Shown: in pieces, positions 974 through 14,388 of the stretch | How the letters are laid out: the number at the start of each line of letters is the position of its first letter | Position numbering within the stretch: the first letter of the stretch is position 1 | IMG/VR virus record: IMGVR_UViG_3300032087_002889 | Location: 1-26,874 of that record | Reading direction: 5' to 3' (one strand) | Source: a virus | Taxonomy: Duplodnaviria > Caudoviricetes | DNA: 26,874 nucleotides | The notes under the pieces: generated by a model | The model's database searches: none | The model's input: the letters and a program-made list of their open reading frames with translations, nothing else | Told to the model about the DNA's origin: nothing | Translations under genes and position numbers: made by a program

Positions 974-3900
974 TATTTATCCTTGAGTTGTTGTTTAAGT
1001 TCATTTACTTCGGCACTTAGTTCTTGTACCGCTTTAATTAATGGAAGAACAAATGCTTCAAAAGATACGTTTTGTCTGCCATCAGGATTTACATCCCATC
1101 CGCTAAAAGTATCTACACCTTGTTTATCCAATGCTTGTTTTACTTCTTGAGCAATTAAACCATGTATGACTTTATCGCCACCCATAGGCTCTTTATCATT
1201 CTCATCATAAGCGTTCCATTCTTTTGGAAATTCGCTTGGTGATTTATGCTTATATGTTACTGGTCTTATATCGTTTATAAAGTCAAGACCTAGTGTATCA
1301 TCTTTAATTTCTTTCTTTTGTCTTTCATCAGAAGAGTGTGTCCAAGTAGCATTAGTATTGTAATCATTATAAATATGACTTGTATTATTACCAATATGCA
1401 CTCTTGAATCAGCAGTTCCAGTAAGACTTTTCCCAATCACAATTTGATTTGATGAATTATTAGCACTAGTATCTGCTGTATAACCTATAATTATATTATC
1501 TTCGCCAGTTGTTATTGTATCTCCTGATGAGTAACCTAAAGCAATATTTCTTCTTGCAGAAGAAACTGAGCCTAAAGTATTGTATCCTACAGAAGTATTC
1601 CAACTTCCATTCGCCCCACTTGCTCCTTGACCTGCTAAAGCACCTATATAAGTATTTACACCACCAGTTGCATTTGCTCCAGCTTTATCGCCAATGTAAG
1701 TATTACTATTTCCACCAGCATTATCTTCACCAGCTTCATACCCTAAAAATGTATTACTAGCACCAGTTGTAATTGAGCGACCTGATTCATATCCGATAGC
1801 CGTATTATTAGCACCTGACGTTAAAGCACCAAGAGCATTATAACCTATTGCTATTGTACCAGTTTGAGTATTAGTGCTAGTTGCATCCATTGCAAGAGAA
1901 CCAATTACAACACATTGTTTTAATTCACCAGTACCGCCTTGACCTGATGCATTTCCAATTAAAACATTATGGTCTGCATTATCATTGTTTATATATCTAC
2001 CAGCGTAATCTCCAATAATAGTATTGTTATTTTCTCCATTATCAGCAGTTTGAAATGCTCCACGACCAAGAATAACATTACTTGAGTTATTAGTCATTGC
2101 ATAACCAGATTGATAACCTATGGCAATATTATTAGCACCTGTTGTCAAAGCATTAAGAGCTTGTCTACCTATTGCTATTTGACCAGTAGATTGACCACCA
2201 CTTGTTTTTCTAAGAGCATCTGTACCTATAGCAATGTTATGGTCTATTGTTACTCCACCAGTTCCTAAATCAGCACCACTTAAAGCATTAACACCTATTG
2301 CAATATTGTAATCAATATGTCCGCTTGTGCCTTCATCCATAGTTGACATTGAATTATAACCTATTGCAATATTTCCTATTTCTCCAGCACCTAAAGAATT
2401 ACTAGCACCATATCCAAGTGCTGTATTTCTCTGCCCACTAGTAATTGCATTTAAAGCACTATAACCCACTGCTACATTATTACCACCAGTTGTAACCCCA
2501 TTTAAAGCACTATGTCCTACTCCAACATTGGCACTATTATTATTTCCAGTAACACCTTGACCAGCTAATGCACCTATATATACATTAGAACTTAAATTTC
2601 CATTTGCACCAGCACTTTTACCAATAAAAACATTTTCATCTCCACCAGTAGTTGCATAACCAGCTCCGTAACCGATTGCAAGATTATAAAGACCATTATT
2701 ATTATATAAAGATTGATAGCCTATTGCTATACCATACACGCCACCAGTACCAACTCCCATTGCTTGATTACCAATAGCAATAGTTCTATTACCAGTTGCA
2801 TTTAAACCAGCATTTAATCCTATTATTACACAATTTGTAGCACCAGTGCTATCTCTACCAGCACTATGTCCAATATAAACTCCATTGTTTACATCTGTAA
2901 CGCTTTTACCAGCTTGATATCCTATTGCAGTTATTCCTGAAGCACTAGTGATTGAAAGTAAACTTTGATAACCTACAGCAATATTGTTATTATGCGAATT
3001 ACCACTAGCACTTTTCATTGATTCATAACCAATGGCTACATTATAATCTCCATTTACATTATTTTGCAATGATAAGTATCCATTAGAAACATTTCCAATA
3101 CCAGTATCATTCTGATATTGACTTCTATAACCTATAGCATGATTTCTTTGTTTTCCGCCACTTCCTATTTGCATAGCACCAGCACCAATAGCAATATTAG
3201 AACCATTTCCACTTACATGAGATTGTAATGCTTCTGCACCAACTGCAACGTTACTACCTGATGTTGTATTATCTCTTAATGCCCTATAACCTAAAGCTAC
3301 ATTAGAAGCAGAAGTTGTATTACTTTGAAGTGCAGTATATCCTAATGCTACATTGTTGCCACCAGTAGTAGCTCCTTTTAATGCCTCATATCCAACTGCT
3401 GTATTATTACTATGCGAATTGCCTGATACACCTTCTAAAGCACCTTTACCGATTGCTACATTAGCACTTCCAGTTTGATTTCTATATAAACTTTGTATGC
3501 CTAATGCGGTATTATATCCACCAGTAGTAATTCCAAGCATTGAAGTATGCCCAATAGCGGTGTTTTCCGTAGCAGTAGTAATATTTGTCAAACTTTGATA
3601 ACCTACAGCGGTATTGTTTGAATGTGAATTACCACCAGAACCCAACATTGATTCATGTCCAATAGCGACATTATTACTTCCAGTTTGATTTAATGCATTA
3701 GCATTATAACCAATAGCTATAGTTTTTTCACCAGTAGTTAAATATTTTGAAGTGCTTTTTCCTAGTCCTACATTATAACTACTACTAGTAACAGAATTTA
3801 ATGATTCATGCCCTACTGCTACACTATTACTACCAGTAGTAATTGAGTATAAACTTTGATAGCCTACAGCAGTATTGTTGGAATTTGAGTTTCCGCTAGC

Positions 3901-12397: not shown

Positions 12398-12427
12398 TTG
12401 ACACATCCAAAAATAATTTTTTACATT
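12398..12427 (+). promoter_or_regulatory. Main early promoter
   Basis: TTGACA-N18-TACATT, preceded by inverted repeat AAAGTTAA-atga-TTAACTTT (12372-12391); AGAAAGG RBS follows. Confidence 0.65.
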
Positions 12428-12459: not shown

Positions 12460-12813
12460 ATGAAATTAAAAACTACTTACAAACAAATTAAAGAGGGTAC
12501 GCACCCCGAACATTTAATTAAGGTTGGTTATTGTTCTCTTCAGTGGTTGCTAGGCTACAAACAAGCTTTTGCATATTCTTCGGGGCATTATGGTTGGAAT
12601 TGTGATTATTACGAATTTAATCTAAATGGAAAATACTTTGTAATTTCTACAGGATATAGACCGATTGGAAGAGATATTGATTACAAAATAGTAAAAAAAT
12701 ATGAAGATAAGGCTAGTAAATTGATGGGTAATTATGACAAGGAAGTTGTAAAAAATAGACCTCAATTATTAGACAAAGTTATTGAAGAATTTTTAACAGA
12801 AATAGAGGGGTAA
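12460..12813 (+). CDS. Phage early protein of unknown function
   Basis: 117 aa; VGYCSLQWLL...AYSSGHYGWNCDYY...STGYRPIG motifs recalled from other phage hypotheticals. Confidence 0.85.
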   Translation: MKLKTTYKQIKEGTHPEHLIKVGYCSLQWLLGYKQAFAYSSGHYGWNCDYYEFNLNGKYFVISTGYRPIGRDIDYKIVKKYEDKASKLMGNYDKEVVKNRPQLLDKVIEEFLTEIEG

Positions 12814-13080: not shown

Positions 13081-13139
13081 GATTAGCTGAAGATGGCTTT
13101 ATTAGCCGAAACACCCAATATTTTTTGGGTGTCCTAATC
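13081..13139 (+). ncRNA. Type I hammerhead ribozyme 1 (cleavage after GUC, C13133)
   Basis: Stem I GAUUAG/CUAAUC; core CUGAAGA+U; stem II GGCU-uuauu-AGCC; GAAA; stem III CACCCAA-uauuuu-UUGGGUG; GUC triplet. Confidence 0.93.
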
Positions 13140-13158
13140 AAATTAGAAAGGTAATAAA

Positions 13159-13728
13159 ATGAGTGAAAAAAACGTAGTTATCAAAACACAAAAACCAACC
13201 GATGATGATATTAAAATGGTCATTAAGGCTGGGATTACACATAGTTTAGAGCAAGAAAAAATGGCTCAAATCATTGTTGCTGATATTGTTAATATGAATA
13301 AACAACATTGCACTACTAAAATGACTAGGGCTTTAGATGACATTTTTGCTAATGGAGAGGCTGAAGAGATAGACAATACAAAAAAGTTTGTTAAAACTCA
13401 GCTTCAAACTATCATTAAATCAAAAGCCGTTCAAACAGCTTTATTAGGTGAAGATATTAAACTAAAATCTTTGACTATTAAAAAAGTAAACAACGGGGTT
13501 TTAGATGGTGATAAGTGCCTAAATAAAGACAAATTCCAAGATAAGCATTTAGGTTTGTTTAGGGTTATAATTGAAAGCAAAAAAACAACCCCAAAGTCAT
13601 TTGATGAAGAGCTAAATAAACTCATGGAGAAACATGGCAAACATGCAAACGACCTAATCAGTAGTGCTTTAAATTGGTTATCAGTGGAACAGATAATGGA
13701 GGAATTAGAAATAAAACAAGTAGCATAA
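13159..13728 (+). CDS. Hypothetical early protein bracketed by two hammerhead ribozymes
   Basis: 189 aa, Lys-rich, helical; AGAAAGGT RBS; no recognised family. Confidence 0.85.
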   Translation: MSEKNVVIKTQKPTDDDIKMVIKAGITHSLEQEKMAQIIVADIVNMNKQHCTTKMTRALDDIFANGEAEEIDNTKKFVKTQLQTIIKSKAVQTALLGEDIKLKSLTIKKVNNGVLDGDKCLNKDKFQDKHLGLFRVIIESKKTTPKSFDEELNKLMEKHGKHANDLISSALNWLSVEQIMEELEIKQVA

Positions 13729-13734
13729 TCCTGT

Positions 13735-13794
13735 ATTATACTGAAGATGACCTAATGAGGTCGAAACAGGGGTTTTATATCCCCTGTCTATAAT
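13735..13794 (+). ncRNA. Type I hammerhead ribozyme 2 (cleavage after GUC, C13788)
   Basis: Stem I AUUAUA/UAUAAU; core CUGAAGA+U; stem II GACCU-aaug-AGGUC; GAAA; stem III CAGGGG-uuuuauau-CCCCUG; GUC triplet. Confidence 0.93.
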
Positions 13795-13809
13795 TTGGAG
13801 GAATTATTT

Positions 13810-14388
13810 ATGAACTTAAAACAAATTGAGAAATCAAAGCTATTTCAAGATGATTGGAATAATTGCACTGTAATTGCCTCATCAATAGCTTTTAATTTAG
13901 ATTATGACAAAACAAGCCGATTTTATACCCTACATGGTAGAAAATGGAGAGATGGTTTATATCATTGCGATACTGATAGAATCATCAAATTACTAGCCGA
14001 GCAAGAGGGTTATGAGGTTGATTTTTTTGCCTTTGATAAACATGAGGCAAAAATATTAAAAGGCGTTTATAATTGGAAAAGAGGAAAATTTATAAAAAGA
14101 CCTCATTTTCAGCGTTATAAATTCCAAGCTGATAAAAAGAATCCAATGGATTTAATGACCTTAACTCACAATCTAACACCTAACAATCAGCATATGTACT
14201 TAGAAAGAGGTGATTATATTTTAGGCTGTCAAGGTCATGTATTAGCTGTTAAAAATGGATTTGTGGAAGATTGGACAGAGGGTAGAAAACACAGAATAAA
14301 TAAAATTTGGAAGATAACCAAAAAAGATAAAAAAGTTAAATCTTTAACTTTTTCAGAATACTTCAATAATAGAGAAAGGTTGTTCTAA
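13810..14388 (+). CDS. Papain/C39-like cysteine peptidase-fold phage protein
   Basis: NNCTVIASSIA...GHVLAVKNGFVEDW gives a candidate Cys-His-Asp triad; start moved to ATG 13810 after GGAGG. Confidence 0.65.
   Translation: MNLKQIEKSKLFQDDWNNCTVIASSIAFNLDYDKTSRFYTLHGRKWRDGLYHCDTDRIIKLLAEQEGYEVDFFAFDKHEAKILKGVYNWKRGKFIKRPHFQRYKFQADKKNPMDLMTLTHNLTPNNQHMYLERGDYILGCQGHVLAVKNGFVEDWTEGRKHRINKIWKITKKDKKVKSLTFSEYFNNRERLF

Follow-up and report, generated by a model that had tools for sequence, protein, structure and literature searches.

Two type I hammerhead ribozymes, HH1 and HH2, lie in the consecutive intergenic gaps around a 189-aa gene of a tailed phage and probably cut the early transcript on both sides of this gene, which would free it as a linear single-gene mRNA. 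The arrangement is real and well conserved, and the layout itself is already known in phages. An earlier note on this DNA had interpreted it as protein-free processing of the early polycistron, with a possible circular mRNA, and as a layout without a characterised precedent. Its minimal claim, protein-free processing, is supported by the cores, folds and conservation described below and coincides with the reading published for similar arrays, as given in the available passages of Perreault et al. 2011 (PMC3088659). The circular mRNA is not borne out, and the novelty claim falls, as those passages already contain the layout.

The window (the whole stretch of 26,874 nt that was analysed) is an entire linear virus record with an estimated completeness of 77%. 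It encodes the large and small terminase, a major head protein, a tail protein, a primase/helicase and a DNA methyltransferase, a gene set that identifies a tailed DNA phage; the primase/helicase is 28–34% identical to its 15 best cultured-phage matches. The sole genome match of the small terminase (69% identity) is on a 3.3-kb contig of a Flavobacterium MAG (L256). This contig is possibly a binning artefact, because the phage has strong Shine-Dalgarno motifs, and it is too weak a basis for naming the host. The hammerhead locus forms the head of a rightward run of small genes behind a sigma-70-like site at 12398-12427. Its features are as follows.

12398..12427, + strand: candidate sigma-70-type promoter for the early operon (TTGACA, 18 nt, TACATT), the best + strand site of the scan (10/12)
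12460..12813, + strand: 117-aa ORF, the first of the early genes, without a family; it varies among relatives, with another gene in its place in L003
12817..13080, + strand: 87-aa ORF, whose stop codon immediately precedes stem I of HH1 (stop-to-core 6 nt)
13081..13139, + strand: HH1, type I hammerhead, predicted cut 13133/13134; optional among relatives
13140..13158, + strand: short leader after HH1, with Shine-Dalgarno-like AAGG at 13148-13151 (cut-to-AUG 25 nt)
13159..13728, + strand: 189-aa mainly helical orphan protein, conserved among relatives and often placed first in the early operon
13729..13731, + strand: UCC, for which RNAfold predicts pairing with the GGA in the Shine-Dalgarno of the following gene, as a distal part of HH2 stem I
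13735..13794, + strand: HH2, a type I hammerhead whose stem I consists of A-U pairs only, with its predicted cut at 13788/13789; it occupies the conserved slot behind the 189-aa gene
13797..13801, + strand: Shine-Dalgarno GGAGG of the downstream gene (cut-to-AUG 21 nt)
13810..14388, + strand: 192-aa protein, the usual neighbour behind the slot, with C19, H143 and D154 invariant in 32 homologues

The promoter candidate is conserved in the relative L003, at 3097-3126. The protein encoded between the ribozymes has a confident structural model (pLDDT 86.6) but no assigned function: no match was found in Pfam, in PDB by Foldseek or in the GenBank phage set, PHROGs gave one weak match to an uncharacterised family (phrog_38379), and named neighbours in the Atlas occurred only at chance level. 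Besides its homologues in related phages, it has only one viral homologue, an unnamed one. The 192-aa neighbour likely adopts a papain-like (C39-type) cysteine hydrolase fold. Papain-like proteases, or a protein containing one, fill its first five Foldseek rows, none at E ≤ 0.001, and the Atlas gives a lead to PF03412, on 19% of one cluster; no PDB sequence match was found for it. Elsewhere in the family, ORFs in the early regions of L012 and L064, at distances of ∼2.0 and ∼2.5 kb on the upstream side of the small terminase gene, resemble ArdA anti-restriction proteins in their N-terminal motif. The ardA gene is one of those with hammerheads on its flanks in the available passages of PMC3088659.

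The earlier note had described complete type I hammerheads in both gaps around ORF 13159-13728, and the coordinates, a descriptor search and RNAfold agree on this point. HH1 consists of a 6-bp stem I, the core CUGAAGA, a 4-bp stem II, GAAA, an 8-bp stem III (A15.1-U16.1 included) and GUC; HH2 has the same CUGAAGA, GAAA and GUC elements with stems I, II and III of 6, 5 and 7 bp. Both fit the core consensus C3 U4 G5 A6 N7 G8 A9, G12 A13 A14 A15, U16 H17, as it is given in the passages of PMC3088659 at hand. In each, the three stems have no mispairs beside the core, stem I is open and stems II and III are loop-closed, and RNAfold returns the three-stem fold. The descriptor, which covers types I, II and III, matched HH1 and HH2 and no third hammerhead on either strand of the window, and gave 2 loose and 0 strict matches in total on 200 dinucleotide shuffles. 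A pattern search of five related records recovered the two sites of the early region and, in G001 and G004, a single further match within coding sequence. With cmscan, the Rfam search that had been suggested returned no hammerhead from the window up to an E value of 10, and no hammerhead was called at gathering score in eight loci, six of them with clear hammerheads. The motifs being real, these missing matches reflect the reach of the models and not the fold. The fragment between the predicted cuts is 655 nt long, the length given before.

As a tertiary contact, only 2–3 A-U bp can be proposed for HH1 and HH2, and pseudoknots of 5–9 bp are predicted in relatives. UUU at stem/loop II and AAA just 3′ of stem I, invariant in 11/11 HH1-class sequences, may form a short contact. 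Many hammerheads without a predicted contact are present in the set described in the accessible part of PMC3088659. On the minus strand, a promoter-like site (10/12) at 13735-13764 is aimed back into the 189-aa gene and is invariant in 8/8 HH2-class sequences; it arises from the conserved core. Stem I of HH2 also reads TATAAT on either strand; as a + strand -10 box it was rejected, as there is no -35 element and a start there would sit inside the RBS.

Comparison with relatives upheld the earlier claim that stem pairing is under selection. Across the 11 sequences of the HH1 class 98.9% of the cells are paired, with compensatory, two-sided changes at 9/17 pairs, and across the 8 sequences of the HH2 class pairing is complete (100%), with such changes at 7/18 pairs; slid controls gave 22–43% of cells paired. 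Stem I of the HH2 class is invariant in all 8 sequences. This strong covariation, together with the intact cores, argues for selection on catalysis-competent folds.

We gathered relatives via the 189-aa protein, the next protein and the small terminase (80 of 164 small-terminase matches were kept). A profile search yielded 92 copies of the 189-aa gene, of which the 45 distinct ones with sufficient downstream DNA formed the census set; classes without a descriptor match were assigned by eye from folds. The HH1+HH2 pair is present in 8/45 loci. A downstream hammerhead alone is found in 19/45 (18 by descriptor, plus L118, which has a variant core and was recognised by eye), and an upstream hammerhead alone in 0/45. 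No descriptor match was obtained in 19/45 loci: one is L118, and the other 18 carry non-ribozyme structures, namely (i) a long stem of 9–11 bp with an internal loop and a lower stem in 13/45, (ii) a tRNA-like minihelix (acceptor plus T-arm) ending in ACCA in 3/45 and (iii) a plain G+C hairpin in 2/45. A structured element thus stands behind the 189-aa gene in 45/45 loci. On the 189-aa protein tree the pair is limited to one clade of 9 rows (support 100/96), the ninth row, L020, having no HH1 and a promoter-like site directly upstream of the gene. The long-stem label requires at least 3 changes on well-supported branches. HH1-type ribozymes occur alone at other junctions further downstream in L023, L063, L074 and L077. 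Genes upstream of the 189-aa gene are present without HH1 in L065, L069, L072 and L077, which indicates that HH1 is not required. This distribution indicates that the conserved unit is the structured element behind the 189-aa gene and that the pair is one local solution. The swapping of cargo genes between ribozymes, which had been proposed as a check, was not seen: all 8 pair loci hold the same 189-aa family.

The alternative occupants of the slot deserve a description of their own. The long stems (L026, L038, L054, L056, L063, L064, L074, L075, L079, L105, L108, L109 and L114) share a UCAUA-like loop of 5 nt, a 3′ side with five U and, below, a stem of CACC/GGUG type; they may act as weak terminators or as RNase III sites. 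The minihelix (L044, L045 and L031; in L044 at ∼990-1025 on the minus strand) lies just 5′ of the next RBS and combines a 3′ ACCA with an acceptor-like stem and a T-arm that carries the GGUUCGAUUCC loop region. Its shape resembles an RNase P or RNase Z substrate, and it is possibly a processing site for one of these enzymes; it was called neither by ARAGORN nor, in L044, by Rfam at gathering score. Core-variant hammerheads were seen in L037, L047, L051, L061, L072, L077 and L118, the variants being extra bases on both sides of stem II, U15.1-A16.1 in L037 and C at position 4 in L118.

These elements suggest the following course of events. Transcription would proceed from the promoter at 12398-12427, the early transcript would be cut at 13133/13134 and 13788/13789, and the weak stems I of 6 bp, made up entirely of A-U pairs in HH2, would let the pieces separate. 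Hammerhead chemistry would give every downstream piece a 5′-OH terminus 21–25 nt before its AUG. Owing to the type I topology, the ribozyme hairpins remain on the upstream piece, which would end in two hairpins (stems II and III) and a 2′,3′-cyclic phosphate. mRNA stability and output could then be set gene by gene. The selected function of the HH2 slot is likely to end the message behind the 189-aa gene; HH1 would be a clade-specific addition, likely providing a fresh 5′ end where extra genes separate the 189-aa gene from the promoter. 5′-OH ends resist RNase E, and 3′ hairpins slow exonucleases. The latter effect is also reported in the available passages of PMC1540722, and the excerpts of PMC6206723 describe an engineered hammerhead ahead of an RBS that increased mRNA about twofold and protein by a factor of two to ten. 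The complete cores, the folds, the covarying stems, the position between a stop codon and the next RBS and the distribution in the family all favour this linear processing, as does the precedent in PMC3088659, so far as its accessible passages go. On the other side, the direction of any effect on stability depends on the nucleases of the host, and the long stems may be mere terminators instead of cut sites.

RNA data, in the form of assembled contigs of environmental runs aligned to the window and to L003, add to this picture. A run search gave ten candidate runs, each with less than half of the sequence words looked for. The bracketed gene is covered by RNA contigs in 4/4 metatranscriptome runs. 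The contigs of three runs that align to the window come from a strain ∼90% identical to it in the bracketed gene, which tempers their use for linear processing; on L003, most contigs of X4, X5 and X6 are 99–100% identical, and a near-identical strain thus occurs in public metatranscriptomes. An RNA contig starts at L003:3148, and in three RNA runs the stretch 2436-3147 with the promoter is free of contigs, which is the pattern that RNA should give. In X2, X4 and X5, the contigs over the bracketed gene end, without a loose end, at one and the same HH2 core base (equivalent to window position 13746), a point past which DNA records continue, and contigs resume 18–40 nt 3′ of the predicted HH2 cut. 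In X4 the contig of the bracketed gene begins 23 nt 3′ of the HH1 cut and has no loose end on either side. These stops, in contigs of a relative, are a weak hint of cleavage: hairpins can break cDNA, cleavage may occur during extraction, and the runs are perhaps from one campaign. The contigs of run X1 do not cover the ribozymes, no DNA-run control spans the sites, and X7 consists of scattered pieces only. Contigs bridge a ribozyme in 0/6 crossings, against 13/18 ribozyme-free gene junctions (hand count; Fisher p 0.003, on non-independent rows), and, for four small pieces outside this count, the bin depths leave no room at either ribozyme. Given this dependence among rows, and since missing contig cover is no proof, we did not count this gap as evidence.

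The reading in which the 655-nt piece becomes a circle, a host RtcB-type ligase linking its 5′-OH to its cyclic phosphate to give a stable molecule that is translated, appears highly improbable to us; the fuller version of it, in which two unrelated hammerheads and such a ligase generate an exonuclease-proof early-gene circle incapable of re-cleavage, has an equally slim chance of being right. The fragment ends are indeed RtcB substrates, RtcB is present in 10/14 control genomes, and RtcB circularised doubly self-cleaved retrozyme monomers in vitro with 30–80% yield, according to the accessible part of PMC7229834. The fragment length is also constant (650–656 nt across the 8 pair loci), and a minor circular fraction would be compatible with the contig data. 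However, the pair exists in just 8/45 loci, all in one clade; most loci have a lone downstream ribozyme or a non-ribozyme substitute, and these substitutes would not leave RtcB ends. Within the 655-nt piece, the first 25 nt and the last 60 nt have a pairing probability below 0.1 at every base, so that the ends are not predicted to pair. RtcB was found in 0/5 phage records, four of which have a completeness of 90% or more, although a host could supply it. The back-joint 13788>13134, for which the earlier note had proposed a search of metatranscriptomes, was found in none of the contigs of five RNA-type runs and one run of unrecorded kind, nor was any joint of another sort; this counts weakly, since contigs lose rare forms. 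Circular products were also sought in comparable arrays and not detected, in the available passages of PMC3088659, and the retrozymes known to form circles consist of tandem repeats whose RNA is highly self-paired, according to those of PMC7229834. The claim made for the junction holds in its letter, since 0 bp of stem I are re-formed there in the window and 0–2 bp in the 8/8 pair loci, a failure that follows from the different stem I sequences of HH1 and HH2 and that excludes self-ligation by the ribozyme. This failure is no pointer to a circle: the exon-skipping product re-forms just 1 bp of stem I in 8/8 pair loci, and this equal failure is no sign of selection for a circle. The variety of elements that fill the slot, with several subtypes of hammerhead as well as long stems and a tRNA-like minihelix, is a natural experiment and argues for selection for an RNA end, not for ligatable chemistry. 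A functional circle would, if true, be a new mode of phage gene control; it is not supported now.

Processing into linear mRNAs could be refined by translation. In this refinement, which we consider doubtful, a terminating ribosome would have the 5′ strand of stem I inside its mRNA channel and either delay folding or strip off the cleaved downstream piece, freeing the RBS, so that upstream translation would time both processing and the expression of the next gene. About 6 nt behind an A-site stop codon sit in the ribosome entry channel. The stop-to-core distance is 4–8 nt in 33/37 distinct family hammerheads, against 30/104 in the IMG/VR sample, and the cut-to-AUG distance, by contrast, ranges over 16–45 nt; in addition, a loop II pseudoknot of at least 5 bp is predicted over the Shine-Dalgarno in 9/36 family hammerheads. 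Against this, genome compaction explains the stop spacing equally well, the family rows are related, HH2 itself is 12 nt from its stop codon, and loop II pseudoknots are a known activity contact (PMC3088659, available passages). Little gating is predicted either: by nested folding, the gain in RBS access after cleavage has a median of 0.8 kcal/mol and reaches at least 2 kcal/mol in 3/36 hammerheads, with -0.4 kcal/mol for HH1 and 2.1 kcal/mol for HH2 of the window, and on these grounds cleavage-gated translation was rejected as a general rule. Seven long-stem-II hammerheads found behind the 189-aa gene (L012, L024, L029, L057, L060, L069 and L112) have a loop II complementary over 5–9 nt to a 3′ flank that includes part of the Shine-Dalgarno, loop and flank covarying, and are candidates for cleavage-gated translation on this pattern. 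No description of a ribosome-timed hammerhead was found in open-licence papers and preprints; such timing would, if true, be a new mode of phage gene control, and it is not supported now. The elements might instead serve decay or shut-off, or be slowly active, mobile low-cost spacers, and not raise the output of the bracketed gene; we regard this as improbable. 5′-OH ends speed decay in hosts with RNase J, as with glmS; HH1-type elements do sit at differing junctions in different relatives, and the long stems found in the HH2 slot finish with five U, like weak terminators. The strong covariation and intact cores, the structured slot in 45/45 loci and the presence of the bracketed gene in the RNA contigs of 4/4 metatranscriptome runs stand against it.

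Gene-bracketing hammerheads are frequent beyond this family. A type I pattern was estimated to occur in ∼4200 stored IMG/VR stretches, by extrapolation from 2 of 64 parts. The sample examined comprised 125 loci, 119 of them distinct; a full type I hammerhead was present in 79 and at least two in 17, 45 of the loci being short-flanked. Among 31 adjacent pairs, 14 bracket a single ORF, which indicates that such pairs are ordinary in phages, and 21 would re-form at least 4 bp of stem I at a circle junction. Three loci of this sample (L183, L193 and L131) carry 4–6 type I hammerheads per 4–5 kb, many with near-identical stem I; pieces excised from them could re-form a ribozyme, which makes these arrays better candidates for circles or for DNA-level gene shuffling than the window.

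Perreault et al. 2011 (PMC3088659), in its available passages, provides the closest parallel. Multiple hammerheads flank individual prophage genes there, in Clostridium scindens, Azorhizobium caulinodans and the Agrobacterium tumefaciens ardA locus, around single genes or short blocks. Three native clusters cleaved in vitro and one in E. coli, and circular and spliced products were considered, none being detectable. The alignments of that study may already include relatives of HH1 and HH2. As in those clusters, the hammerheads of the window lie in consecutive intergenic gaps of a phage polycistron, on the coding strand, around one gene. According to excerpts of PMC13725137, type I hammerheads are usual in bacterial and phage DNA, and the purpose of phage hammerhead processing is called unresolved in those of PMC6765202. 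The window differs from the published clusters in belonging to another phage family, in its orphan cargo, in cleavage being predicted here from sequence, in one slot that is interchangeable with non-ribozyme structures and in a second ribozyme that is clade-specific, with RNA contigs that give a weak hint.

The T7 early RNA offers a second parallel, in that one early transcript is cut between genes, by RNase III at R1.1-type sites, and protective 3′ hairpins are left; the 13 relatives with an internal-loop long stem in the HH2 slot, as putative RNase III sites, extend this likeness. Internal loops restrict RNase III to a single cut, leaving 3′ hairpins, according to the available passages of PMC1540722. 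Unlike T7, the window needs no host enzyme and would leave 5′-OH and cyclic-phosphate ends. Retrozymes (PMC7229834, accessible part) resemble the window in that two type I hammerheads of the same orientation free a unit with ligatable ends. However, retrozymes are non-coding tandem repeats with self-paired RNA, whereas the unit of the window is single-copy and coding, its two ribozymes have unrelated stems and its ends are not predicted to pair. Finally, like the engineered insulator RiboJ (PMC6206723, in the passages at hand), HH1 and HH2 would place a self-cleaving ribozyme just 5′ of an RBS, trim the upstream RNA and fix the 5′ end; in contrast to RiboJ, they are natural and of type I, and the downstream mRNA would retain only a 21–25-nt leader.
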